Part shown: positions 292 through 43,642 of the stretch, piece by piece
How positions within the stretch are numbered: the first letter of the stretch is position 1
Layout of the letters: the number at the start of each line of letters is the position of its first letter
Assembly (NCBI GenBank): GCA_963774665.1
Contig: CAVZGB010000021.1
Location: forward strand, 255,467-319,466
Direction: 5' to 3'
From: an uncultured delta proteobacterium
GTDB taxonomy: Bacteria > Desulfobacterota > Binatia > Binatales > Binataceae
DNA: 64,000 bases
Made by a program: the position numbers and the translations under genes
Notes under the pieces: generated by a model
Database searches by the model: none
What the model was told of the DNA's origin: nothing
The model's input: the letters and a program-made list of their open reading frames with translations, nothing else

Positions 292-1914
292 TTACTTTGG
301 AGCGGCGACCTGCTTCTTTACGAGGTAAAAATATCGATGGCCGAGGCCGAACGGGCCGGGCCATTTTAGCCGCCGGACGACTTCCATGCCGGCGATCGGT
401 TCGCTCGCGATCGTGTACTCGTTCACTTTCGGCGACGTGATCATCGGGATTCCCGACTCGAGCTCCATCGTTTCGATTCCATGCTTGGGGTACCGATAAA
501 GATCTTCGCCGTTGAGCGGATAGCCCGCATCGATCGCTGATCGCGGAACTCCCTGGTGCTCCAGTTCGTTCCGGGTCGCGAGGACCACGGCCAAACCTCG
601 TTGATACGCATACGTCCCGCCTAGCGACATCAAGCCCATCGCGAGCGTCATCGCAAATCCCGCTGCCATGACCAGCCTCCTTCGAGGGAGCGGCGCAAGC
701 GCAAGCACGATCGCGCCGGCCGGCACCAGCACCAAGTAATAGCGATCGTTGTAAAACCATAACGGCACGGTAGCAGCCCAATAAATTAACGCCGCTATCA
801 GGATCGCCGCCGACGCTCGCCCGAGAGTTTTGAAGGTTGACGCTAGGGCAACGAAAAATCCGGCCGCGCCCACGCTCGCGAGCGCCAGCAGCACGTACTG
901 CCAGTCGCCTTCCCACATAAAGCGATTCGCCCCTCCGCGCAGTATCAGGACGTTGTGCCAACCGCCGAAGCAACTGTACTCGGGCGTTACGGGTAGCTCA
1001 TGGTCCAACTGCATCAGGATCAGAGCGGCTGCGAAAATCCCGACACCATAGAGCACCACTCTCCGCCATCGCGACGTTGTGAGCTGCAGAATCGCCAGCG
1101 GCGACAATACCGTGCCCAGGTAGAGCGCCGGGCCGAGCAATCCTGCGCGCAGGTAGGTCGCGAGCGGCACCAAAAAAAGGTAGTGGAAACGATTTTCGTT
1201 GAGCAGCAGGTCCCACGGCTTCGGGCCCAATACCGTCAGCCAGATCCACAGCCCCGTGCAGACCGCCAGCGCGACGCCGAACGGCGCCATCATCTTGATC
1301 CATCGCGCGAGGTCCCACCGATTGGTTCCGCGCGGCCTCGCATCGTAAACCAGCATCGCGCCGACGCATCCTGCTATCGCCATCGCGCCGAACGGCCGAA
1401 TCATGAATGCGATCACCGCCATCGCCGCGGCTAGCCACATCCACAACTGCTCGTGCTCCCCTTCCGCCTTGGCGAATGCAAGATGCGCCGCGACCAGCGC
1501 GGTCAGAAACGGAATTTCGGTCATGAACGAAAAACTCAGGAAGGTGAAGCACGGATTGCAGATCAGCAGCCCCGTCGCCGCGAGCGCCTGCCATCGCGGC
1601 GCTCCGCATTTGATCGCGAGCGCGTGGAACATCACGCCGCACAGCACTGCCAGCATCACCACCGACAGTTCCAGCGAAACCGAGTTCGCGCCGAACGCAT
1701 GCGCCCAGCCCACGCCGTAGAAGACCTGCGCTATCGGCATGTCCTGCGTGAAGCCGGCGAACCTCATCTCACCGGTGCGCAGGAACCGCCGCACGGCAGA
1801 GTCGTAGAGCCAACTGTCCACGACGGGCGCTTCCGTCAGCGGATGTAAAATCCAAAGCGCAAACGCGTACCATCCGATCACCACCGCTGCCGCGGTCCAT
1901 CCTGCGCGCCTCAT
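292..1914 (-). CDS. Polytopic GT-C fold membrane glycosyltransferase (ArnT/PMT-like, GT39/GT83-type) with a C-terminal soluble domain
   Basis: 540-aa ORF with 10 or more predicted transmembrane helices and an ArnT/PMT-type periplasmic loop layout. It is adjacent to ArnB-like and UXS-like genes. Family call is by resemblance only. Confidence 0.55.
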   Translation of the reverse strand: MRRAGWTAAAVVIGWYAFALWILHPLTEAPVVDSWLYDSAVRRFLRTGEMRFAGFTQDMPIAQVFYGVGWAHAFGANSVSLELSVVMLAVLCGVMFHALAIKCGAPRWQALAATGLLICNPCFTFLSFSFMTEIPFLTALVAAHLAFAKAEGEHEQLWMWLAAAMAVIAFMIRPFGAMAIAGCVGAMLVYDARPRGTNRWDLARWIKMMAPFGVALAVCTGLWIWLTVLGPKPWDLLLNENRFHYLFLVPLATYLRAGLLGPALYLGTVLSPLAILQLTTSRWRRVVLYGVGIFAAALILMQLDHELPVTPEYSCFGGWHNVLILRGGANRFMWEGDWQYVLLALASVGAAGFFVALASTFKTLGRASAAILIAALIYWAATVPLWFYNDRYYLVLVPAGAIVLALAPLPRRRLVMAAGFAMTLAMGLMSLGGTYAYQRGLAVVLATRNELEHQGVPRSAIDAGYPLNGEDLYRYPKHGIETMELESGIPMITSPKVNEYTIASEPIAGMEVVRRLKWPGPFGLGHRYFYLVKKQVAAPK

Positions 1915-2008
1915 CGACTCCTGCCTTGCTCCCGTTTTGACCTATCCCTTATACTCCGAAATTAACTCGACCAACGGGACTGCACCGATTTCAATCGAAT
2001 CACACACG

Positions 2009-3190
2009 ATGCGACAAGTAGCTTTTCATCGTCCGTCCATCGGACCCGACGAGGAGCGTGAGGTACTCGACACCCTGCGCTCCGGATGGATCACCACCGG
2101 CCCCAAGGCCAAGCGCTTCGAAACCGAATTCGCCGACTACGTCGGCGCCAAACACGCCCTCGCCCTTTCCCATTGCACCGGGGCGCTGCATCTCTCGCTA
2201 TGGGCGCTCGGCATCGGCCCCGGCGACGAGGTTATCACCACGCCGTTCACCTTCACCGCGACTGCTGAAATTCTCGGCTACCTCGGCGCGCGTCCGGTGT
2301 TCGTCGACGTCGATCCCGGCACCTTCAACATCAATCCCGCCCGTATTGAGGAGGCGCTCGAGAGCGGCGCGAACAAACGCGTCCGCGCGATTCTGCCGGT
2401 TCACTTCGCCGGTCATGCCTGCGACATGGACCGGATTCTCAACATCGCGCGCACCTACAATTTGAAAGTTGTCGAAGATGCCGCGCACGCCGCCGGTTCC
2501 GCGCGCCACATGGACGGCCGCGGGATGGCGAAAGTCGGCACCATCGGCGACCTCACCTGCTTCAGTTTCTACGCCACCAAAAATTTCACCACCGCCGAGG
2601 GCGGCATGATCACCACCTCGGACGACGCGCTGGCGGAGAAAATCGCGGTCGCCAGCCTGCACGGGATGAACAAGGACGCGTGGAAGCGCTACGACAAGAG
2701 CGGCTCGTGGTACTACGAAATCCACGACATGGGCTTCAAGTACAATCTGTCCGACGTGCACGCCGCCATCGGATTGGCTCAGCTCAAGCGCGCCGACGAC
2801 TTCATGCGCCGACGCGGTGAAATCGCGCGCGCCTACAACGACGCCTTTCGCGGCGACGACGCGCTCCAGCCTGCGTACTCCGAGCCCGGCATCGAGCACG
2901 CCTGGCATCTCTACGTCCTGCGGATCCGCCCCGAGCGGCTCAAGCTCGGCCGCAATCAGTTCGTCGAACTTTTGCGCGAGCGCGGCGTCGGATGCTCCGT
3001 GCACTGCATCCCGCTGCACACGATGCACTACTACCAGCGGATGTACGGTTACCGCGACGGCGATTTTCCCATCGCCGAAGACATCTTCAGCCGATGCCTG
3101 TCGCTGCCCATTTACGCCGCCATGACCGACGACGACGTGGCTTACGTGATCGAAACCGTTCGCGCCATCGCGCGTGAAAACCGTCGCTGA
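2009..3190 (+). CDS. DegT/DnrJ/EryC1/StrS PLP-dependent sugar aminotransferase (ArnB-like, UDP-4-keto-pentose aminotransferase)
   Basis: Motifs are collinear with ArnB: SGWITTGPK, GDEVITTP, ILPVHFAG, VVEDAAHA, FSFYATKNFTTAEGGMITT, FKYNLSDVHAAIGLAQL and HAWHLY. The ORF track starts at 1937; the ArnB-like N-terminus begins at M25 (MRQVAFHRPSIG). Confidence 0.8.
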   Translation: MRQVAFHRPSIGPDEEREVLDTLRSGWITTGPKAKRFETEFADYVGAKHALALSHCTGALHLSLWALGIGPGDEVITTPFTFTATAEILGYLGARPVFVDVDPGTFNINPARIEEALESGANKRVRAILPVHFAGHACDMDRILNIARTYNLKVVEDAAHAAGSARHMDGRGMAKVGTIGDLTCFSFYATKNFTTAEGGMITTSDDALAEKIAVASLHGMNKDAWKRYDKSGSWYYEIHDMGFKYNLSDVHAAIGLAQLKRADDFMRRRGEIARAYNDAFRGDDALQPAYSEPGIEHAWHLYVLRIRPERLKLGRNQFVELLRERGVGCSVHCIPLHTMHYYQRMYGYRDGDFPIAEDIFSRCLSLPIYAAMTDDDVAYVIETVRAIARENRR

Positions 3191-7924: not shown

Positions 7925-9175
7925 ATGCCTTCCACCCTCGCAATCCTCGGCGGCCAGCCGCTTCGCACTCGCCCCTTCCCGGCGTGGCCAGTTTTCGACG
8001 TCCGCGAACGTGCGCAGCTCGAAGACGTCCTCACCTCGCAAAGCTGGGGCGGCTACCCAAGTCCCAATCGCAAGGCCGCCGAGTTCGCCGCCGCATTCGC
8101 CGCCTACCAGGGCGCTCGCTTCGCGATTCCGACCACGTCCGGCACCAGCGCGCTCGAGGTCGCACTCAAAGCACTCGGCATCGGCGCCGGCGACGAGGTC
8201 ATCGTCCCCGCGATCACTTTCGCCGCGACCCCTTACGCTGCCGTCGCATGCATGGCGCGTCCCGTCTTCGCCGACGTCAGCGCTGCTGACGCATGCATCG
8301 ATCCCAAATCCGTCAAGCGTCTGATCACGCGCCGCACCAAGGCGATCATCCCGGTCCATTACGGCGCGTCGCTCGCCGATCTCGACGCACTCGCGGAAAT
8401 CTCGCGCGCGCATTCCATCCCGATCGTCGAAGACTGCGCCCACGTCCCCGGCGCTCAGTTCCGCGATCGCGGCGTCGGCACTCACGGCGCTCTCGGATGC
8501 TTCAGTTTTCAGTCCTCGAAGCCGATGACCGCGGGCGAAGGTGGAATGATCACGACCGACGATCCCGAGCTCGAGCAGCGATGCCAGTCGCTCATCAACT
8601 GCGGACGCCGCCGCCCGGAAGACAATTTCGAAGGTCCGCTGATGGGCGCGAACTATCGGATGACGGAATGGCAATGCGGAATTCTGCTCGCGCAACTCGC
8701 GCGCCTGCCCGAACAGATCGAGCACAAGAGCCGCGCCGCCGCCCGCCTGCGCGCAGAACTCGCCGCCATCAAGGGTCTGAGCCCGATCGCACGCGATCCA
8801 CGGGTCACGCGCGAAGTAGTCTACGCATTTGTATTTCTCGTCGACGAATCCGCGCTCGGCGTGTCGCGCAATCGATTCGTCCGCGCACTTCGCGCCGAAG
8901 GCATACCATGCGGCGTCGCCAACGACCCGGTTTATCGCTCCGCACTATTTCCGCGCGAGTCCGCCCCCTATCGCAAAGCAGTTGAACTGGCGGGCGCCAA
9001 TCCCGACACCGCCGCGATCGATTGCCCCGTCGCTGAGCGTTTGTTCGAGCACGCCATCGTCTCGATACCGCACGAATGCCTGCTCGGCGACGACCACGAC
9101 CTCGACGACATCATCGCCGCAGCCGCCAAAGTGGCTTCCGGAGCCACCGACCTCGCCTCGGCCAAATTGAAATGA
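7925..9175 (+). CDS. DegT/DnrJ/EryC1/StrS family PLP-dependent aminotransferase (second paralog)
   Basis: 416 aa with aminotransferase motifs: FAIPTTSGTSALEVAL, IIPVHYGAS, IVEDCAHV and FSFQSSKPMTAGEGGMITT. Confidence 0.85.
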   Translation: MPSTLAILGGQPLRTRPFPAWPVFDVRERAQLEDVLTSQSWGGYPSPNRKAAEFAAAFAAYQGARFAIPTTSGTSALEVALKALGIGAGDEVIVPAITFAATPYAAVACMARPVFADVSAADACIDPKSVKRLITRRTKAIIPVHYGASLADLDALAEISRAHSIPIVEDCAHVPGAQFRDRGVGTHGALGCFSFQSSKPMTAGEGGMITTDDPELEQRCQSLINCGRRRPEDNFEGPLMGANYRMTEWQCGILLAQLARLPEQIEHKSRAAARLRAELAAIKGLSPIARDPRVTREVVYAFVFLVDESALGVSRNRFVRALRAEGIPCGVANDPVYRSALFPRESAPYRKAVELAGANPDTAAIDCPVAERLFEHAIVSIPHECLLGDDHDLDDIIAAAAKVASGATDLASAKLK

Positions 9176-22686: not shown

Positions 22687-23343
22687 TCACAACGGATCGA
22701 AATACGGCGCTACGCGGCCACTGAAGTGGAACTCGCGCGCGAGTGCAATCCACTTGCGATCTACGCCATGCAGCGGCTCGGGCAGACTATCCAGCGGAAA
22801 GAACGCGGCTGCGAGCGCCTCGAGCGGATTCGGCTTCAGCTCACCGCCGACAATTCGACAATAAAAAAGCATCGAGTAGATATGGCGCGCAGGTGAGCCG
22901 TACTTCTTGTTGTCGATCACAGCGATCAGACGCTCGGGCTCGACGATAAGGCCAGTCTCCTCGCGCGCTTCCTTCGCCGCGTTCTCAGCGGGCGATACGC
23001 CGACATCGCAGAACCCGGTGGGATACCACCACTTCCCGGTTGGCCGCTGAATCATCAGGATTTCGTCGCGATCGTTGAACGCGATCACGCCACATCCTAC
23101 CGCCGCGGTGACGTATCCTTCGTAGCCGGCGATCACCTGCTGGCGCCATCGGCGGCGCAATGCTTCCGCGTCGTCGTCGTTCGCACCGGCTACGACCGAA
23201 TGCATCCGCGCCGCCTCTTTGAGCAATTCCTCGTAGCGCTCGGAATCGTAGCCGTCGGGCTTAAAGGCGAATCCGGTACGCGCGATCGCCGTGATGCGTT
23301 CGATAAAGCGCGCCAGTTCAGGGAGCAGATCAGAGTCGGACAT
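22687..23343 (-). CDS. NUDIX hydrolase with an N-terminal accessory domain
   Basis: Nudix box GFCDVGVSPAENAAKEAREETGL. The start is taken at MSDSDLLPE (M22 of the track ORF). Confidence 0.8.
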   Translation of the reverse strand: MSDSDLLPELARFIERITAIARTGFAFKPDGYDSERYEELLKEAARMHSVVAGANDDDAEALRRRWRQQVIAGYEGYVTAAVGCGVIAFNDRDEILMIQRPTGKWWYPTGFCDVGVSPAENAAKEAREETGLIVEPERLIAVIDNKKYGSPARHIYSMLFYCRIVGGELKPNPLEALAAAFFPLDSLPEPLHGVDRKWIALAREFHFSGRVAPYFDPL

Positions 23344-23536
23344 GCGATGTTCCTTGTCGTGAGTTCGCCGAGGAATATAGCATGAGCTCGCGTCGCTCCC
23401 TGTCATCCTGAGGGTAGCGAAGGATCTCGCGCGTAGCGCGTACTGATAGACGCCGAACGCAAGGCGTCCGTCGAGATTCTTCGCTACAGCAGCTTCCGCT
23501 CAGAATGACAGAAGAAGTTAGGAACGGATTTGTGCG

Positions 23537-24385
23537 ATGAAACTTATCCTCAGCCGCAAGGGATTTGATTCGGCCAACGGCGGATGTCCGAGCCCAATCC
23601 TTGACGGCCAACTTTGCTCGCTTCCGATTCCGGATGCTGATGCGCCGACGTGTTACGCCGGAATTTCCTCGTTCAACGGCTCGTCGATCGCTCAAATGGT
23701 CGAAGACCTGACCCGCGGTCGAGTCCGTCGGAGCGATGGCGCACATCTCGATCCCGATTTGCGTCGCGATTCTATCTCGCGCGCCGCTGGATGGCGTCCG
23801 ATCTTCGGCCAGGCAGCAGCTGCGCAGAGTCATCTCGCGCGGCACGAGGTAGGATGCGGCGATCTCTTTCTTTTCTTCGGAAGCTTCCGACAAGTCGAGA
23901 AGATTGGAGGCACGCTCCACTTCGTTCGAGATGCGCCGAGACTTCACGTTATCTTCGGATGGCTCCAGGTTGGGAGAGTGTCACGCGCAACCAATGAGCT
24001 TACGACTGAAATCCCGTGGGCGAACGGACATCCGCATCTCGCCGCGCCCGAGCGATACAAGAACAACACGCTTTATTTCGCGAGCGATCTTCTCTCGTCA
24101 ATTGGCCTCAAAACCAGAGGCGCCGGAACCTTCGACCGTATCAGACCTGCATTGATACTCACGGAGACCGACGCGAATTGTTCAACGTGGCGACTGCCGC
24201 GATGGTTCAATCCAAAGGGCCGCCCTGCCCTTTCTTATCACTCGAAGCCGGCGCGCTGGACGGATTGCGACAACTCGATGCGCTTGCAGTCGGTCGGCCG
24301 CGGCCAGGAGTTCGTGCTCGACGTCGACCAGTACTCTGAAGCGCGCGCCTGGTTGCGATCGATCTTTCGCGCCGCTAATCGCTAA
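23537..24385 (+). CDS. Conserved hypothetical protein, family not recognised (MKLILSRKGFDS…GGCPSPI… N-terminus)
   Basis: 282 aa with balanced, non-repetitive composition. Divergent from the NUDIX gene. Its 3' end overlaps the convergent kinase-family gene by 4 nt. Confidence 0.5.
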   Translation: MKLILSRKGFDSANGGCPSPILDGQLCSLPIPDADAPTCYAGISSFNGSSIAQMVEDLTRGRVRRSDGAHLDPDLRRDSISRAAGWRPIFGQAAAAQSHLARHEVGCGDLFLFFGSFRQVEKIGGTLHFVRDAPRLHVIFGWLQVGRVSRATNELTTEIPWANGHPHLAAPERYKNNTLYFASDLLSSIGLKTRGAGTFDRIRPALILTETDANCSTWRLPRWFNPKGRPALSYHSKPARWTDCDNSMRLQSVGRGQEFVLDVDQYSEARAWLRSIFRAANR

Positions 24386-25440
24386 CGCCGCGAAGCCGAG
24401 TTGCATACCGACCAGGCCGCGTCGGCGAGCGCGGGCACTCGTTCCTTGCTGGCAGCGAACAGTGGATCATCGGTCTGGCCGAGCACGAAGCGCGCGTAGC
24501 TGCCCTCCATAATGATCGCGAGCTTGAAGAGCGCAAACGCCTGGTAGAACGGGAAGTCGCGCATCGCGCGGCCGGTGAGGCGCTCGTATCGATCGATCAT
24601 CTCGCGCCGCGTGAGCCATCCTGGCGCCACTTGCATACTGGCGATCACGCCGCCCGACGCGTCGGTCGGGTCGGGCCAGTAGGTCAGCATCCAGCCGAAA
24701 TCCGCGAGCGGGTCGCCAATCGTCGACATCTCCCAATCGAGCACGGCGATCGCGCGCGCACTCTTCGGATCGAACATCACGTTGTCGAGCTTGTAATCGC
24801 CATGGACTATAGTCGGCGCCGGCGACTGGGGGATTCGCGCGCGCAGCCACGCCTTGACGTTTTCCATGACAGGCAGCGGACGCGTGTGCGGAATCGTGCG
24901 TTCGAGCTGATCGGTCCATCGCGTGAGCTGGCGTTCGAGATAGCCGTCCGGCCGCCCGAAGCCTTCGAGGCCGGCCGCGCGCCAATCGACCTCCTGCAGC
25001 GCGACCAGCACATCCACCATCTGCTCGCTAACCTGCCGGCGCAGCTCGGGGGTCTGCACGAAGTGCTTGTTGTCGGCACGCACGACGTCGCCGCGCATAT
25101 ACTCCATCAGGTAAAACGGCGCGCCGATGTATGACGGATCGTCGCATCGCGCATACACGCGCGGCACCGGCACCGCCGTTTGCTGCAGGGCTTCGATCAC
25201 GCGATATTCGCGCATCATGTCGTGGGCTGTCGGGAGCAAAGGCCCACGCGGAGGGCGACGAAGGGCCCACGACTTGCCGTCGAAATGAATCAGGTGGACC
25301 TCGTTGGAATGGCCAAACGAGATGTTTTCGGATCGAAGCGCGCTCGTATTACCGAGCTTGCGCTGATCGAGGAAGCGCTTGAGGCCGTTGAGATCGACCG
25401 TGGCGGACGGTCCGGTTTTTTCCTGCGTCGTAGTACTCAT
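24382..25440 (-). CDS. Phosphotransferase (APH/choline-kinase-like) family protein, often found with acyl-CoA dehydrogenases
   Basis: Brenner motif HGDYKLDNVMF and DWEMSTIGDPLADFG. Confidence 0.8.
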   Translation of the reverse strand: MSTTTQEKTGPSATVDLNGLKRFLDQRKLGNTSALRSENISFGHSNEVHLIHFDGKSWALRRPPRGPLLPTAHDMMREYRVIEALQQTAVPVPRVYARCDDPSYIGAPFYLMEYMRGDVVRADNKHFVQTPELRRQVSEQMVDVLVALQEVDWRAAGLEGFGRPDGYLERQLTRWTDQLERTIPHTRPLPVMENVKAWLRARIPQSPAPTIVHGDYKLDNVMFDPKSARAIAVLDWEMSTIGDPLADFGWMLTYWPDPTDASGGVIASMQVAPGWLTRREMIDRYERLTGRAMRDFPFYQAFALFKLAIIMEGSYARFVLGQTDDPLFAASKERVPALADAAWSVCNSASRR

Positions 25441-25528
25441 CGAGCGTACTGTTTTCGCAAACGGGGCTCGCGGTCAAGCGCCTGCCCATCTTGCGAGAGC
25501 AAACCACGCACCTATACAACGAAATGCA

Positions 25529-26440
25529 GTGACCGCGGCGCCAAAGTTGAACGACAGTCCGAGCACGAGCAAGGTGGCCGCGATATTCCGCCTCGCGCGG
25601 CCTCATCAATGGATCAAGAACGCGTTGGTGCTGGCGCCATTGGTTTTCGGCCAGCGGCTGTTCGTGTTGCACGACGTCGTGCTTGCAATCGTGGCATTCG
25701 TTGCGTTCTGCGCACTCTCGAGCGCCGGATACGTTCTAAACGATATCGCCGACCGTGACGCCGATCGGCTGAATCCTGAAAAATGCGACCGTCCGCTGGC
25801 GCGGGGCGATCTCTCCGTCGCGACGGCGACCCGGGCGGCCCTGGCGCTGGCCGCGATCGCAATCGTGCTGAGCATTATACTGGGCGGCGCGTTCCTGGGA
25901 ATCGCCGTCCTATACGCCGCGCTTCAACTCTTTTATTCACTCTGGGCCAAGCACCAGGTGATACTCGACATTATCGCGGTTGCGATCGGGTTCGTGCTGC
26001 GCGCATTCGCCGGCGGCGTCGCGATCAACGTCGAAGTATCGCCATGGCTGGTTTTCATCACGTTCGTGTTGGCGATGTTCCTGGTGTTGGCGCGCCGACG
26101 CCACGAGCTGATCGCGCTGGGCGACGGAGCCATCGCGCATCGCAGCGCGCTCTCGGAATACAGTGTCCGGCTGGTCGATCAGATGATCTCGATCGTCGCC
26201 GGCGCAGCGCTTGTCAGCTACATGATTTACACGGCGTCGGCCGAAGTCGAAGCGAAACTCGGAACCCGGCACCTTTATCTGACGGTGCCGTTCGTCGCAT
26301 TCGGAATCCTGCGTTATCTCTACCTGATTGATGAGCGCAACGAAGGAGGCGACCCCGCCCGCGCATTGATCCACGACCGGCCGCTGCTGCTCGCGGTCGC
26401 GTTGTGGATACTTACAGATATCGCGTTGCTCTACTTCTAG
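25529..26440 (+). CDS. UbiA-family prenyltransferase resembling decaprenyl-phosphate phosphoribosyltransferase (DPPR synthase)
   Basis: …LARPHQWIKNALVLAPLVF…, Asp-rich YVLNDIADRDADRLNPEK and eight or more transmembrane helices. The start is uncertain: GTG 25529 or TTG 25547. The track ORF from 25379 overlaps the divergent gene. Confidence 0.65.
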   Translation: MTAAPKLNDSPSTSKVAAIFRLARPHQWIKNALVLAPLVFGQRLFVLHDVVLAIVAFVAFCALSSAGYVLNDIADRDADRLNPEKCDRPLARGDLSVATATRAALALAAIAIVLSIILGGAFLGIAVLYAALQLFYSLWAKHQVILDIIAVAIGFVLRAFAGGVAINVEVSPWLVFITFVLAMFLVLARRRHELIALGDGAIAHRSALSEYSVRLVDQMISIVAGAALVSYMIYTASAEVEAKLGTRHLYLTVPFVAFGILRYLYLIDERNEGGDPARALIHDRPLLLAVALWILTDIALLYF

Positions 26441-27654
26441 GGCGTCCCTTCGCGCGCGGCTGGAGCTTCAGCATGAGGTAATTCCGAGCGCATCCTCTCC
26501 CGGAAGATCAGCGCGGCGCAAAGGTACGCAGCCAGCAGCATTGGGAAACTTGGACCCGGCACCGCCTTGATCAAGGCGGACACGATCAAGAAAGCGAGCA
26601 TCGCGCTGCCAGCTATCAATCCGATGTTGCGGGTTGGTTCGCGAGGCTCGAACCCCTGCCATGCGGCGGTCAGTCCGAATAAGCACGCAGGCAGCAGCAG
26701 TATGAAATCCTGTCTCCACGCCAGCGGGGACATCAACACCGCGAGTGCGACCCACAGTCCGAACGCGAGGTCGTCGAGATCGGCGCGTCCTTGGGCTGCT
26801 ATCGTGGCCGCAGCCGCGATTGCTATCAGCAGGAGGTCGATAAGCGCGGTCAATCCCCAGACTGCGAAGAGCGGCTCGACGTTGATCCTCGTACCAGTGA
26901 AGTACGCCGCGCTGGCTCGCGCAAAGGAGAGCACGCTAAGTCCGTGGCGCCCGGCGATGCGATATGCGATTGGCAGCCCATTCGTCGCAAGCGCAATCCA
27001 ATGCACAGGATTCGTCAGCAGTACGCCGGCAGCGAAAAAGCCGATCGTCCAGCCGAGTGCACGCGATCGGCGGCCAAACAAAAAATATCCAGCCACTGCT
27101 GCGGGATAGAGCTTCAGCAACGCCGCGAGCGCCAGCCACAGTCCGGCGGCAGCCTGGCTTTGTCGCCGCGCGCAGAACCATGCCGCTGACAACAGCGCCA
27201 GCAGCATCGGCGCTATCTGGCTCCATACCAATGCGGCCGCGAACGGACTCGATAGTATCGCAAGCGAAAGCACGATGATCGTCGGCGCGGAGCCAAGCGG
27301 CGACGCACATCCGCGCGCCAGCAGGAGCACGGCGATCACCATGCACAGGATTTGCGACGCCTGCCAGATCCAGAACGCAGTTTTCTGGTCGAGCCGGGCG
27401 AGCGGTGAAAATATCTCGACGAAAGCCGGCGTGTAGTTACAACCACGCATCGGTCCCCGCTGATCAGTCCACGGGTCGCCGCCGTTCGAATAGTCGCTCC
27501 ACCAGCCGTAGAAGACGACGAAATCGAACTGATCGTATCGATGCGAGATGGTATGCAGACGCTGGGCAAGCAGGAGCGCCGCGACGACCATCAGGATCGC
27601 CGCCCCAGCCCTGGTAATCCTAAGCCGCTGCTGAGCCGGAATTTCTGTCTTCAA
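26437..27654 (-). CDS. GT-C membrane glycosyltransferase of the DUF2029/GT87 type
   Basis: 405 aa, polytopic. Its stop overlaps the UbiA-family gene stop tail-to-tail. Family call is by architecture only. Confidence 0.5.
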   Translation of the reverse strand: MKTEIPAQQRLRITRAGAAILMVVAALLLAQRLHTISHRYDQFDFVVFYGWWSDYSNGGDPWTDQRGPMRGCNYTPAFVEIFSPLARLDQKTAFWIWQASQILCMVIAVLLLARGCASPLGSAPTIIVLSLAILSSPFAAALVWSQIAPMLLALLSAAWFCARRQSQAAAGLWLALAALLKLYPAAVAGYFLFGRRSRALGWTIGFFAAGVLLTNPVHWIALATNGLPIAYRIAGRHGLSVLSFARASAAYFTGTRINVEPLFAVWGLTALIDLLLIAIAAAATIAAQGRADLDDLAFGLWVALAVLMSPLAWRQDFILLLPACLFGLTAAWQGFEPREPTRNIGLIAGSAMLAFLIVSALIKAVPGPSFPMLLAAYLCAALIFRERMRSELPHAEAPAAREGTP

Positions 27655-27666
27655 GCACTTGAAGTT

Positions 27667-30285
27667 TCAATAATTCGGCAGCACTCCGGTCGGTGCCCCG
27701 ACCAAGCCCTGCGTCTGGAACGGATTGCGTCCGAACGGACTGCGTCCCACCGAGCCCAAGCCGCCCAGCGTCAACTGGAACTGGACCTGCACTTCGTTGG
27801 GATTGGTCGAATCGGTGATTCCAAGATCCGCCGCCCAACAATCGCAGGGCGATTTCAGACGCACACCGTATTCGGTGGACAGCATCCTGTTGTCCGCGAG
27901 ATCGTAGCTGGGCGCAATGTAGACGCCGAGTCGATCGAATAGGTCTGTGTACGCGCGCCCCGATACGAATTGCGCAGCGTTTCTGGCCGTCGCGGGGAAG
28001 ACTGTAGCCTTCCTGGCGGCGTAGTTGTATGCGAACTGAAGGAACGAGCCTTGCAACGCTTTGCCCAGGTATATCGGCGCGCCTTTGTTGCCCCAGGGCG
28101 GCTGAATATCCAGCGCCGCGTTCGCAAACGTGATCCCGGCATGCGCTCGCGGATTGTAGTCGAGTTGGGAAGACAGTCTGAAGATCTGGGTCGCATTGAC
28201 GTTCAGCAGTCCCTCGATGTCCGACACTTTCGAACCGTCGGTCGCCACCTCATGCGAGGTGTCATACGCCTGCAGTACCGTGAGCGAGCCAAGTTCCTGC
28301 GAACGTTCGCCATTGCGAGTGATATTTCCGCCGCGAGGCGCCAAAGAGTCCGCGAGCGGATCTTCATGGAACGGCCCGACGTTCGAGTCGCCGTTAGGGG
28401 ATATCGCTTCCGTCGGAGTCGCGTCGGTGGTCGTATCTTCCGCCGCTTCTCCCTTCATCTTGGCGTATAGCCGCGTGGTGAATCCATACGTGATGAGACT
28501 GCGCGAATTCAGACGATCGGTCTGATCGAACAGGGGCTGATTACCCTGGTAAATGCGCGGCACGTACGCATAGTTGGCAAACGGCTCGATCGTGTTTTTC
28601 AGCTTCTCGATCGATTTCCATTGGAAGTCGTAAACGCGATCGAGGACCGTTGAGATTCCCGCGCTGGCGTATGGGACCATTCGGGCGCTGGTTCCGTCGG
28701 CGCCAAATGGACTCAAAGTGACACAATTATTGAAAGCGAGAGAAACGCCGCCACCGCCAGGGCAAGTCCGGTTAGCGTGGTTGACAGGAGGGACGGTTCC
28801 GACCGGAATGATATGAATATCCCGTCCAGCCGTGTCGTAGAGAACACCTTGCGTACCCACCTGCCCGTAGCCAGTCAGGTAGTCGCCCAGGCGCCATGGC
28901 AGTGTGATCTTGGGCTTGGCAGAGAAGCGCCCGCCGTCGATCCCCTGGTACCGGTAGAAGTTGACCGCCTCCGTATCGTAGTCCGCGAACATGGTGTTAT
29001 TGAACAATTCCTGGCGTCCGTTCACCGTCAGATCGGGCAGCCGTTGCAACGCAAACTGTTGCGGCTGAATCAGATCCTGGTTCCAGGTGCCTTGCAGACG
29101 CGCGTAGGCGTTTTCAAATTGATCGATTAACCCGAAGTTCGACATCGCATTGGTCATCGATCCGAAATTTATCGCGCCTCCCGGCCCATTGGCGAAGCCG
29201 CGCGACAACGTCCATACATCCATTTCGCGCAAGTACAGGCTGTCACTCACGGAAACTGTGTCGCCGTATGCGATCAGATTGTCCGTGAGATGCTGCCGCG
29301 TCATCGCGATAATCCCAAAACGATTGATCGGGATATGCGGATCGGCGATCTGCCCATCTACGATATTGTTCAGCCGATTCGCTTCAGATCGGAGCGACTC
29401 GTTGTAGAATGCGCCATCCGCCCACAGGTAGTCGTCTTTGCCATTGACCAGCCGGTATTCTGCCAGGCCTCCGACCCGCTGCGAGGTCTCGATATCGCCC
29501 GCCACCGTCGCGTCGGAACTCTTATTGATCGCGATGTAGTACGGCTGCAGCCACTGAAAGCCCCGCAGTCCCGATTGTCCCTCGCGCCCGCTCAGGAAGC
29601 CGCTGTGACGATCCGAGTCAGCCGGAAAAACCATGTACGGCAACGGAATCAGCGGGTAGCCGGCGACGTTGAAGGTGCCATTGTGGACGGTCCCCGTCTG
29701 CCCGACGTTCACTGTCATCTGCTTCGCGTTAATCGACCAGTCGGGGGTGCCCTTCTCGCATCCGCAGGTCGTGAAGTATCCGTCTTTGACCTCGTAGGTC
29801 TGCCCCTCGAGCTTCGTAACCTGTTTGCCTTCAAGGTGATAGATATTTTGCTTCGCCAATATCTTGGTGTTGTAGAGCACCATCGTCTCGTTGGTCATGT
29901 CGATAGTGCCTTCGGTCGCCCACATCTCGACCTCAGGATCGATCAGATGGACATGGCCAATCGCGCGGGCCTTGCGGTCGCGGCGCATGATGTCGATCTC
30001 GTCGGCCTTCAACACGCTGCCGCCCTGGGTCATGACGGCGTCGCCCTTGACCACGAAGGTGTCGGTCTTCGAATCGTAGATAGTTTCCTGACCGGTGACG
30101 TTGACCGGTTCTTCGTGCTCGGCGCGGACCGGGGTTGGAATTCCACCGGATTTCTTTTTCGCAGGCGCCGCAGCAGCGGCAGGAGGATCGGCGGCACGGA
30201 CGACAGCCACGGAAAGCAGCGCGGTCCACACGATCGCGAGCGTGATAGCTAATCTTTTAAGCGCCGGCTTCAGGAAACAACCCAC
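27667..30285 (-). CDS. lptD: LPS-assembly outer-membrane protein LptD (OstA N-terminal domain plus C-terminal beta-barrel)
   Basis: 872 aa. Signal peptide, then OstA-like …VKGDAVMTQGGSVLKADEIDI…IGHVHLIDPE, then a long barrel with a C-terminal aromatic residue. Confidence 0.8.
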   Translation of the reverse strand: MGCFLKPALKRLAITLAIVWTALLSVAVVRAADPPAAAAAPAKKKSGGIPTPVRAEHEEPVNVTGQETIYDSKTDTFVVKGDAVMTQGGSVLKADEIDIMRRDRKARAIGHVHLIDPEVEMWATEGTIDMTNETMVLYNTKILAKQNIYHLEGKQVTKLEGQTYEVKDGYFTTCGCEKGTPDWSINAKQMTVNVGQTGTVHNGTFNVAGYPLIPLPYMVFPADSDRHSGFLSGREGQSGLRGFQWLQPYYIAINKSSDATVAGDIETSQRVGGLAEYRLVNGKDDYLWADGAFYNESLRSEANRLNNIVDGQIADPHIPINRFGIIAMTRQHLTDNLIAYGDTVSVSDSLYLREMDVWTLSRGFANGPGGAINFGSMTNAMSNFGLIDQFENAYARLQGTWNQDLIQPQQFALQRLPDLTVNGRQELFNNTMFADYDTEAVNFYRYQGIDGGRFSAKPKITLPWRLGDYLTGYGQVGTQGVLYDTAGRDIHIIPVGTVPPVNHANRTCPGGGGVSLAFNNCVTLSPFGADGTSARMVPYASAGISTVLDRVYDFQWKSIEKLKNTIEPFANYAYVPRIYQGNQPLFDQTDRLNSRSLITYGFTTRLYAKMKGEAAEDTTTDATPTEAISPNGDSNVGPFHEDPLADSLAPRGGNITRNGERSQELGSLTVLQAYDTSHEVATDGSKVSDIEGLLNVNATQIFRLSSQLDYNPRAHAGITFANAALDIQPPWGNKGAPIYLGKALQGSFLQFAYNYAARKATVFPATARNAAQFVSGRAYTDLFDRLGVYIAPSYDLADNRMLSTEYGVRLKSPCDCWAADLGITDSTNPNEVQVQFQLTLGGLGSVGRSPFGRNPFQTQGLVGAPTGVLPNY

Positions 30286-31598
30286 TCCGCCCCTCGCGGC
30301 TTAGAAAGTACGGGTAAACTTCGCCGATAAGATACACCGATCCCGTAACAAGCGCCACGTCGTCTGCCGCCAGTTCAGAACACACACGCTCGATCGCGCG
30401 AAGCGGATCGCGCTCGACGCGTGCCGGACAATGCGCCGCGAAATGCGCCAGCAGCTCTTCAGGTTCGAGCGGGCTCTTGGGTTTGGCGCGTGTCAAAGTG
30501 ACGTCGCGCACGCGAGGACCGATCATCGCCGCCATCCGCGTCCATTCCTTGGCGGATTGGCAGCCAAATATCAGCCGCGGCTTCACCTCGGGCCCAAGTT
30601 CGACGCTCATCGTTTCGAGCAATGCGGCAATACTCATCTCGTTATGCGCGCAATCGAGGATAACGAGCGGCCGCTTCGATACGACATCGAAGCGCCCCGG
30701 CCAGTATATTTCGCCGCAGGCCCGTCCGTATTGCGTCTTCATCCATACGCCAGCCCTGCGCGCGCAAAGCTTCGAGGGTAGCAACCGCAATCGCGGCGTT
30801 CTCATGCTGAAACGGACCCGCGAGCCCAAGCTCGAGATCGCGTAGCTCCAGTCCAAGGCCGTGATAGTCCAATCGATGCGCCGGCGCGTGCGACTTGTAC
30901 GAAAAATCACGATCGATCAAGCGCACGGCGCTTCGTCGCTGCGCCGCAATCGACGTCAACGCGAGCCGCGATTCGTCGTCACGCGCACCAATCACTACCG
31001 GGACGTCGTGCTTGATAATCCCGCCCTTCTCGCCCGCAATCGCCGCGATCGTGTAGCCGAGATATTCCATGTGATCGAAGCCGATCGGCGTGATAACGCT
31101 CAAAATCGGCGTCACGACATTGGTAGAATCCAGCCTGCCCCCCAGCCCCGTCTCGACGATCGCGATATCGACGTTCTCCTCAGCGAAGTACAGGAACATC
31201 ATCGCAACCGTGAACTCAAAAAACGTGAGCGCGAGGCCCGCGCGATCGTAAATCGCGCGCAGCCGCTCGATATAGTCGAGCATCAGCCCCGCCGGAATCT
31301 CCGCTCCCGAAATCCGTGTCCGCTCCGCGAGGTTCACAAGATGCGGCTTGGTGTAGAGTCCCGTCCGATAACCCGCGCTCCGCAGACAACTATCAAGCAT
31401 CGCGGCGACGGATCCCTTACCCTTGGTCCCCGCGATATGCACCGCCTGAATCCGCCGATGAGGATTGCCAATGACCTCAAGCGCAGCCTCCATCCGCTCG
31501 AGCTTGTAAATCTCCCCGCGCGCCTCGAGCGAATAGAGCCAATCGATCGTCTTGCTGAGCTGATCCATATCCAGCCGAAGTTTATCGGCTATCAGCAT
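30257..31598 (-). CDS. folC: Dihydrofolate synthase/folylpolyglutamate synthase, frameshifted near 30713 as assembled
   Basis: The N-terminal 318-aa ORF carries GTKGKGS and …DHMEYLG…. The C-terminal ORF carries YWPGRFDVVSKRPLVILDCAHNE. The junction …GLRRNI/YWPGRF implies one extra base in a TTT run (plus-strand 30709-30711). Confidence 0.8.
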
Positions 31599-42862: not shown

Positions 42863-43642
42863 ATGGAACTCGGACTTGGCGGCAAAGCGGCAATCGTCAC
42901 TGGCGGGAGCAAGGGAATCGGGCGCGCGACCGCAATCGGGCTCGCAGCGGAAGGCGCGTCGGTGCTGGTATGCGCGCGCGGTCGCGAGGCGCTGGATGAA
43001 ACCGTAAAGCTGGCGCGCGGACGCGACGGCGCTCGCGTTGAAGCGATCCAGGCGGACCTCAACCAACCTGAAGACGTGAAGCGAGTCGTCGCGCGATGCG
43101 TCGAGGCGTTCGGCAAAATCGACATCCTGGTGAACAACGCGGGCAGCGCGCGGCCCGGCGATTTTCAGAAGCTCACCGATGACGAATGGCTCGAGGATTG
43201 GAATCTCAAGTTCTTCGGCTACGTGCGAATGGCGCGCGAAGTCTTGCCGCAGATGCAAAATCAGGGGCATGGCGTCGTTGTCAACGTGATCGGAACCGGC
43301 GGGCTGATCCCGACTGGCGGCTACATGATCGGCGGATCGGCAAATGCTGCGCTCAACCATTTTACCAAGGCGCTCGCGAACGAGGGATCGAAGCATGGCG
43401 TGCGCGTCGTGGGCGTGAATCCAGGGCCTATTTTCACCGACAGGCTGCGTCTATTCACCGAGCGGCGCGCAGCGGGCGGCAACATCGACGAGGTGCTGAA
43501 GCGGATGACGCCGCTCGGGCGTCCCGGCAAAGCGGAGGAAGTCGCGGACCTGGTGATGTTCCTCGCGTCGGAGCGGGCGGCTTTCATTCATGGCGCGAAC
43601 ATCACGATCGACGGCGGCGCGAATCCGGGGCTGATCGGGTAA
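42863..43642 (+). CDS. SDR-family oxidoreductase (3-oxoacyl-ACP reductase-like)
   Basis: TGGSKGIGRA cofactor motif, NNAG, and a Y-x3-K catalytic core. Confidence 0.85.
   Translation: MELGLGGKAAIVTGGSKGIGRATAIGLAAEGASVLVCARGREALDETVKLARGRDGARVEAIQADLNQPEDVKRVVARCVEAFGKIDILVNNAGSARPGDFQKLTDDEWLEDWNLKFFGYVRMAREVLPQMQNQGHGVVVNVIGTGGLIPTGGYMIGGSANAALNHFTKALANEGSKHGVRVVGVNPGPIFTDRLRLFTERRAAGGNIDEVLKRMTPLGRPGKAEEVADLVMFLASERAAFIHGANITIDGGANPGLIG

Follow-up and report, generated by a model that had tools for sequence, protein, structure and literature searches.

A predicted polyprenyl-phosphate phosphoribosyltransferase gene convergent with a GT87-family glycosyltransferase gene in Binatus: a possible lipid-linked pentofuranose system

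The window considered here is a stretch of 64,000 nt of contig CAVZGB010000021.1 from an uncultured member of the Binataceae. It carries a UbiA-superfamily gene and a GT-C glycosyltransferase gene of family GT87 that lie tail to tail and overlap by 4 nt through a common CTAG, as was read from the sequence and as an initial annotation of this DNA had described. Both genes are real and confidently classified by comparison of their sequences, with family assignments far beyond chance. The UbiA-family protein is predicted with high confidence to be a phosphoribosyl pyrophosphate (PRPP):polyprenyl-phosphate phosphoribosyltransferase (PPPRS) resembling the decaprenyl-phosphate phosphoribosyltransferases (DPPRS, or DPPR synthases). 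Its neighbour looks, from its alignment and its structural model, like a catalytically competent GT-C enzyme similar to PimE. We propose tentatively, with a probability that we set just under one half, that the GT87 enzyme draws on a pentofuranose donor made from the PPPRS product. The pair is a plausible minimal GT87-based variant of a kind of system already published. The top homologs of both proteins come from Candidatus Binatus (Binatota) and are named 'decaprenyl-phosphate phosphoribosyltransferase' and 'glycosyltransferase family 87 protein' by NCBI.

The UbiA reading frame is open from position 25379 and the GTG at 25529 yields a product of the length of about 100 close homologs beginning M-x-AAPKL. 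Pfam detects a UbiA domain only (90 bits). The NCBIfam model NF008977 (decaprenyl-phosphate phosphoribosyltransferase) is matched at 256.5 bits for a curated cutoff of 234, and the other two DPPR-synthase models at 203 and 139 bits, against at most 58 bits for the ubiquinone, menaquinone, heme-o, chlorophyll and geranylgeranylglyceryl phosphate prenyltransferase models. The protein does not, then, group with the quinone prenyltransferases. Over its full length it aligns with Rv3806c from Mycobacterium tuberculosis, whose structure was solved by cryo-EM (8j8j; E=8.8e-32, 31% identity). The initial annotation had recognised a DPPR-synthase type from the motifs RPHQWIKN (residues 24-31) and NDIADRDAD (residues 71-79), and the NF008977 score, the Rv3806c match and the PRPP-binding residues all confirm this assignment. 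In Rv3806c, Mg2+ is liganded by N73 and D77, pyrophosphate by R22, K87, R90, K143 and Y138, and phosphoribose by K28, Y70, Q135 and Y157, the last group being not conserved in other UbiA enzymes (PMC10994848). The alignment retains both Mg2+ ligands (N71 and D75, within NDIADRDAD) and all pyrophosphate ligands in identical form (R24, K85, R88, K141 and Y136). The phosphoribose ligands K30, Y68 and Q133 are also identical and Y157 is replaced by F155, a substitution that occurs in some mycobacteria as well (PMC10994848). The protein has about eight hydrophobic segments, and Pfam detected no fused HAD phosphatase domain within its 303 residues.

The second protein matches Pfam GT87 (PF09594) at 80.7 bits for a gathering cutoff of 25, over positions 3-237 of the 237 of the model, and its homologs carry the GT87 annotation from both NCBI and JGI. 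The 405-aa form was preferred over a 384-aa form starting at an alternative ATG because its N-terminal extension is kept in homologs. A search of 1.84 billion cluster representatives returned 3184 relatives at E<=1e-3 and 61 at E<=1e-30. A broad profile was built from 60 diverse full-length relatives (50%-cluster representatives), and it matches PimE (PDB 9dm5) at E=9.3e-21. This breadth was needed to reach PimE, as searches of the PDB sequences with the single sequence and with a narrow profile gave nothing relevant. An AlphaFold2 model based on the 60-relative alignment reached a mean pLDDT of 91.2 and a pTM of 0.91; an earlier model from 24 near-identical sequences (pLDDT 44.5) was not used for the fold search. 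The best PDB matches found by Foldseek were PimE 9dm5/9dm7 (E=3.9e-7, TM 0.68/0.71), followed by glycosylphosphatidylinositol (GPI) mannosyltransferase I, PIG-U, ArnT and PglB. Together these matches indicate a GT-C_A fold, and the Pfam hit, the PimE profile match and the fold agree with the DUF2029/GT87 type named in the initial annotation.

PimE is a GT87 polyprenyl-phosphomannose:Ac1PIM4 alpha-1,2-mannosyltransferase (PDB 9dm5; PMC12041525). The window protein shares with it the GT-C_A core, the catalytic Asp at the tip of juxtamembrane helix 1 (D58 in PimE, D44 here), its Tyr partner (Y62/Y49) and the equivalents Y92/Y74, Q163/Q146, K195/K181 and W319/W313. D44, K181 and W313 are invariant across 24 Binatus sequences. 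The two proteins differ in that their identity is only about 18%, in that the His pair H321/H322 of PimE is replaced by Q315/D316, and in that no phosphatidylinositol mannoside (PIM) acceptor is to be expected in Binatus. In PimE, H321 makes contact with the C6-OH of the mannose being transferred and H322 is a phosphate ligand, and H321A/H322A mutants keep partial activity (PMC12041525). Activity of the window enzyme is accordingly likely retained, although its leaving-group chemistry may differ. The position of H321 is variable in Binatus and is a His in 48 of the 60 broader relatives; that of H322 is always D or E in Binatus. As a subfamily trait, the W-x-H-H/Y motif of PimE and the broader relatives becomes W-x-x-D/E in Binatus GT87 (residues 313-316). 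The acidic residue at 316 may serve metal-assisted leaving-group stabilisation or another donor, and the altered His pair gives no more than a weak indication of a non-hexose donor or a different leaving-group chemistry. The donor sugar is not readable from the GT87 sequence.

The closest published precedent is found in Citrobacter, where alpha-ribofuranose is added to the O antigen on the periplasmic side by three proteins, namely a PPPRS fused to a HAD phosphatase, a MATE flippase and a GT136-family GT-C (Kelly et al. 2024; PMC11127046). In C. youngae O1/O2 these are ORF15 (PPPRS-PRP), ORF14 and ORF12, respectively. Without an epimerase the sugar is ribofuranose, and an added epimerase switches it, ORF13 leading to xylofuranose and DprE1/E2 to arabinofuranose (PMC11127046). 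Candidate systems of this kind were noted in many bacteria, and GT87 is mentioned neither in the text nor in the supplement of that study (PMC11127046). The type of pathway had been presented as uncharacterised in the initial annotation, a claim that the Citrobacter work supersedes. Like Citrobacter, the window presents a UbiA-superfamily PPPRS with the same NDxxD and K/R motifs next to a polytopic GT-C in a lipopolysaccharide (LPS)-producing diderm. Unlike Citrobacter, its synthase has no fused HAD domain and no MATE, SMR or GtrA flippase gene adjoins the pair. Its GT-C is a GT87 of 405 aa without carbohydrate-binding module rather than a GT136, and the pair stands outside an O-antigen cluster, between lptD and a kinase gene, with convergent and putatively coupled genes. 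Of the three-component arrangement, the GT-C gene is thus found adjoining the PPPRS gene in the window, and neither the phosphatase nor the flippase is found at the locus.

By analogy with such systems, the UbiA protein would act as a membrane phosphoribosyltransferase, presumably on undecaprenyl phosphate in this diderm host. An unlinked phosphatase would take off the 5-phosphate and an unlinked flippase would carry the polyprenyl-phospho-ribofuranose to the periplasmic face. There, GT87, whose predicted active site comprises an intact D44 and the lipid-phosphate-binding K181 and W313, would use the lipid-linked pentofuranose to decorate an envelope glycan. Since no epimerase gene is linked to the pair, ribofuranose would be the simplest donor if the genes are coupled, arabinofuranose or xylofuranose coming into play only if epimerases are encoded elsewhere; a ribofuranose donor is as plausible as arabinose. 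The favoured candidate acceptor is LPS, or else some other outer-membrane glycoconjugate, because the GT87 gene is probably co-transcribed with lptD, which lies directly upstream on the same strand, 12 nt from the GT87 start. The presence of lptD, also reported in the initial annotation, is supported by three Pfam domains; the NCBIfam LptD models match its product below their cutoffs. GT87 would be an accessory and frequently lost partner that left a different locus once, in a Binatus sublineage, and settled 3' of a core UbiA gene, and the UbiA product would have to feed other transferases too. Overall, the proposal amounts to a stripped-down two-gene version of the PPPRS, flippase and GT-C pentofuranosylation systems.

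The locus was compared in one genome per GTDB species, which provided 80 loci, about 44-45 from Binatia and 36 from outside Binatia. Binatia loci share the block polA-ECF sigma-anti-sigma-(NUDIX)-Nmad3-APH<- ->UbiA-> <-lptD-folC-accD-trpABFCD. The divergence of the APH and UbiA genes is kept in essentially all of them and the convergence of UbiA and lptD is the core state. Besides the species loci of Table 1, GT87 is found between UbiA and lptD in L004 and L006, and the same 4-nt stop overlap recurs in L004, L006, L015, L033, L041 and L087-L090. In L026, GT87 is inverted onto the strand of UbiA and starts 24 nt after the UbiA stop in an operon-like arrangement, from which it follows that adjacency to UbiA survived an inversion; in L030, GT87 is also co-directional with UbiA, behind palindromic repeats. 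The inverted genes (L026:10913-12360; L030:1970-2142) are flanked by G/C-rich palindromic repeats, CCCCTTCCCC...GGGGAAGGGG, which may be REP/MITE-like elements (repetitive extragenic palindromes or miniature inverted-repeat transposable elements) involved in rearrangement.

A metagenome scan with a GT87 profile distinguished two locus types. Type A is the lptD-GT87><UbiA arrangement (about ten metagenome loci, 65-97% identity). Type B is rsmD-coaD-aminotransferase-GT87><NUDIX followed by an alcohol dehydrogenase gene (25 loci, 43-69% identity), and there GT87 ends in a 4-nt overlap with the convergent NUDIX gene. Type B, also seen in L005 and L099-L128, can hold two paralogs in the order GT87-sulfotransferase-GT87 (L132:3796-9087). 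An apparent lptD-GT87><UbiA locus of much lower identity, L130, was discarded, being a 2.2-kb contig riddled with frameshifts, and a homolog search with the broad GT87 profile returned almost only the same Binatus proteins. Genomes without the type-A gene still have a GT87 of this subfamily, for instance a 4.58-Mb chromosome and a 3.27-Mb contig that carries UbiA at two places (0.07 and 0.98 Mb) and GT87 at 1.47 Mb. Wherever a Binatus genome allowed the check, it encoded UbiA together with one or more GT87 proteins of this subfamily. No UbiA gene was seen at the distant GT87 loci L120, L124 and L126 of the metagenome scan.

Functional coupling of the two proteins is favoured by four considerations. 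Of several thousand genes in the genome, only one or two encode a lipid-pentose donor synthase, and a GT-C gene would seldom come to lie next to one of these by accident. The adjacency persisted through the inversion that produced the tight co-directional UbiA->GT87 pair. The two families co-occur in every checked Binatus genome. Finally, in Citrobacter and in mycobacteria the PPPRS product is a demonstrated donor precursor for periplasmic GT-C enzymes (PMC11127046), and by analogy the same may apply here.

A series of observations nevertheless weighs against the coupling. Only 8 of the 38 assessable Binatia species loci have GT87 between UbiA and lptD, so that it is absent from the junction in about 79% of the species, UbiA being always retained. 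The positive loci are scattered on the UbiA tree, and L007-L009, whose UbiA is 92-93% identical to that of the window and thus closer than that of some GT87-positive species, have no GT87 at this junction. In a neighbour-joining tree, type-A GT87 is monophyletic and nested within type B, which implies one relocation beside UbiA and not repeated selection of the arrangement. This fits a history in which the gene moved next to UbiA once and was then inherited vertically, inverted in one case and lost in several. At the same junction, L013, L016 and L017 hold unrelated genes (STAND/adenylate-cyclase-like genes, and a pair encoding the membrane fusion protein and pump of an RND efflux system), and the UbiA-lptD junction is an insertion hot spot in Binatus. 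UbiA and GT87 are convergent in the window and hence not co-transcribed. At the 36 DPPRS loci outside Binatia, no GT87 gene neighbours UbiA. No FAD_binding_4/ALO, HAD, PAP2, GtrA or MATE gene was found near the pair in the window, and no MATE, SMR or GtrA flippase was found among the annotated neighbours in a screen of open reading frames of at least 80 aa. As far as searches showed, the structurally solved and biochemically characterised GT87 enzyme, PimE, uses polyprenyl-phospho-mannose. As for the acceptor, co-transcription with lptD makes LPS a reasonable one, but clade-wide synteny carries little functional weight. The initial annotation had read the pair as suggesting a polyprenyl-phosphate-pentose glycosylation of LPS, capsule or glycoprotein. 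With an adjacency in 8 of 38 loci, a single origin and a permissive junction, the coupling stays plausible and the LPS target is unsupported.

The two genes could instead be chance neighbours, an explanation to which we grant a large minority share of the probability. According to it, UbiA makes polyprenyl-phospho-ribose, or its 5-phosphate, for other transferases, such as PMT_2/YfhO-type GT-Cs or those of the polysaccharide clusters at the UbiA paralog described below. GT87 would be unrelated, would use polyprenyl-phospho-mannose or another hexose donor, and would have been inserted where the lptD operon ends, at a site between convergent genes that tolerates insertions. The frequent absence of GT87 from a junction where UbiA is constant, its single origin from a locus without UbiA, the unrelated cargo at the same place, the convergent arrangement in the window and the mannose donor of its nearest solved relative all speak for this explanation, as do the GT87-sulfotransferase-GT87 loci of type B, which show a subfamily diversifying independently of UbiA. 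It has to contend with the low prior for such a landing, with the survival of the adjacency through inversion, and with the fact that the PimE residue contacting the mannose C6-OH is not conserved in the Binatus subfamily.

Epimerases bear on a further possibility, a true arabinan-like pathway. In mycobacteria, the decaprenyl-phosphoarabinose pathway comprises the DPPRS Rv3806c, the phosphatase Rv3807c, DprE1/DprE2 and the Aft and Emb GT-C enzymes, its product being used by extracytoplasmic GT-Cs. Mycobacterial AftC is itself a GT87 member. The window UbiA protein resembles this pathway in its full-length alignment with Rv3806c and its retained PRPP and Mg2+ residues, Y157 to F155 apart. In contrast to mycobacteria, no DprE1/DprE2 or PAP2 gene lies nearby in any Binatia locus and no arabinan polymerases are found. 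The host is a diderm with Lpt machinery, not a mycolate bacterium, and its carrier is presumably C55 instead of C50. In Pseudomonas aeruginosa PA7/Pa5196, pilin is modified with D-arabinofuranose by means of a PPPRS homolog, DprE1/E2 homologs and the GT-C TfpW, as cited in Kelly et al. 2024 (PMC11127046). As far as that citation goes, this is a likeness, a Gram-negative DPPRS homolog feeding a lipid-linked pentofuranose to a periplasmic GT-C; the differences are that epimerase and phosphatase genes are clustered there and that the target is a type IV pilin, whereas no pilin or epimerase gene is linked to the pair here. Both the mycobacterial and the pilin system are precedents older than Citrobacter.

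The 36 loci outside Binatia (Acidobacteriota, Desulfobacterota, Gammaproteobacteria, Planctomycetota and others) encode UbiA proteins 37-44% identical to that of the window. UbiA is followed by a DprE1-like FAD oxidase gene in 21 of them and by a DprE2-like short-chain dehydrogenase/reductase (SDR) gene in 23. Other frequent neighbours are HAD phosphatases, LPG_synthase_TM proteins and a variety of GT-C or polytopic proteins (YfhO, PMT_2, TMEM260-like or without Pfam hit); the LPG_synthase_TM-type neighbour occurs in seven of these loci and is absent from the Binatia loci. Such clusters around its closest relatives outside Binatia add to the evidence for what the window UbiA protein is. Hidden Markov models (HMMs) for DprE1, DprE2 and HAD proteins were built from these neighbours. 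No DprE1-like reading frame was detected across the 64-kb window, nor in the 10 kb on either side of UbiA at the roughly 44-45 Binatia loci. No DprE2-like gene was found in the Binatia loci either, the window giving only a generic SDR, and the HAD models matched nothing in any Binatia locus. The SDR in question (42863-43642) was rejected as DprE2, being FabG-like (93 bits), 16 kb away and without a DprE1 partner. The arabinan analogy drawn in the initial annotation is therefore not supported. A pathway in which unlinked DprE1/DprE2 convert polyprenyl-phospho-ribose to polyprenyl-phospho-arabinose for an AftC-like GT87 can draw on the epimerase genes beside the closest non-Binatia relatives, on the GT87 membership of AftC and on the Gram-negative D-arabinofuranose precedent just cited, but such genes cluster with the PPPRS gene in characterised systems (PMC11127046) and are missing from the loci here, which leaves it quite improbable.

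Returning to the coupling of UbiA and GT87, a more ambitious form of it would be the following. A stand-alone PPPRS would make un-epimerised polyprenyl-phospho-ribofuranose, or its 5-phosphorylated form, as a general periplasmic donor. The Binatus GT87 clade, with its acidic residue in place of a PimE His, would comprise the first GT87 pentofuranosyltransferases outside Actinobacteria, decorating lipid A-core or another Lpt-transported glycolipid, and gain and loss of GT87 from strain to strain would create surface variation. Taken as a whole, this is an unlikely conjunction.

Other genes of the window and of Binatus may be concerned with lipid-linked sugars (Table 1). A second UbiA/PPPRS paralog, 84-89% identical, is found at a separate locus in some Binatus genomes (L001/L002/L021:10001-10912, L011, L044). 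It is accompanied by unannotated 883-aa and 298-aa proteins, a Wzm/Wzt-type ABC transporter, a GT4 glycosyltransferase, a Wzy_C/O-antigen-ligase-like protein and an acyltransferase_3 protein. This setting suggests that a lipid-pentose donor is used in surface polysaccharide modification. The 883-aa and 298-aa proteins were rejected as recognisable GT-C or LptD relatives, having no Pfam hit. The 'ArnT-like gene' of the initial annotation found loose support, in that one candidate passes the PMT_2 cutoff and the other stays below it. The PMT-like and DegT genes may likewise serve to modify lipid-linked sugars and could be alternative consumers of the UbiA product.

The region between the kinase and UbiA genes is the presumed promoter region of UbiA; no convincing sigma-70 consensus was found within it, and the counts of a promoter/terminator scan were at shuffle level and not used. 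The NUDIX hydrolase, Nmad3 (nucleotide-modification-associated domain 3) and APH-family kinase genes (22687-25440) form a divergent trio upstream of UbiA that is conserved across Binatus, with no established link to glycosylation genes. Compared with the 97%-identical relative L004, whose FolC is intact at 421 aa, the folC gene (30257-31598, minus strand) is broken into three reading frames, with two single-base gaps over 1411 nt. An indel error of a long-read metagenome-assembled genome is the probable explanation, a pseudogene being the alternative, and similar errors may affect other genes of the window.

Table 1. Coordinates of the gene pair, its neighbours and related loci (window positions unless a locus is given)
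Feature	Position	Strand	Remarks
UbiA-superfamily gene, predicted polyprenyl-phosphate 5-phosphoribosyltransferase (PPPRS/DPPRS-like)	25529..26440	+	303 aa, GTG start
GT87-family GT-C gene (GT-C_A fold)	26437..27654	-	405 aa, TTG start; accessory at type A loci
CTAG palindrome	26437..26440		supplies the TAG stops of both UbiA (+) and GT87 (-)
lptD, LPS assembly outer-membrane protein	27667..30285	-	Pfam LptD, LptD_2, LptD_N
Divergent intergenic region, 88 nt	25441..25528		between the APH-family kinase and UbiA genes; from the open reading frame map and the sequence
APH-family kinase gene	24382-25440	-	
PMT_2 GT-C, 607 aa	51463-53286	+	PMT_2 44.8 bits, cutoff 26.1
540-aa polytopic protein	292-1914	-	PMT/PMT_2 similarity below cutoff
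DegT-family sugar aminotransferase	1937-3190	+	best models PseC and ArnB, below cutoffs; divergent from 292-1914
Second DegT gene	7925-9175	+	
GT87-positive species loci	L014, L015, L025, L026, L030, L033, L041, L048		
Junction insertions	L013:10912-18423, L016:10912-15441, L017:3158-6621		equivalent to window ~26440/27667

The literature searched on the Binatia/Binatota envelope and on DUF2029 yielded nothing relevant. The practical gain from the pair is modest: automatic annotation already names both genes correctly, the mechanism has published prototypes and no long-standing question is opened. If the pair is functional, GT87 would join the GT-C families able to partner a PPPRS in diderm bacteria, and the two genes would offer a minimal module for glycoengineering ribofuranose onto envelope glycans. 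Lipid-linked pentofuranose glycosylation would then extend to the uncultured soil phylum Binatota.

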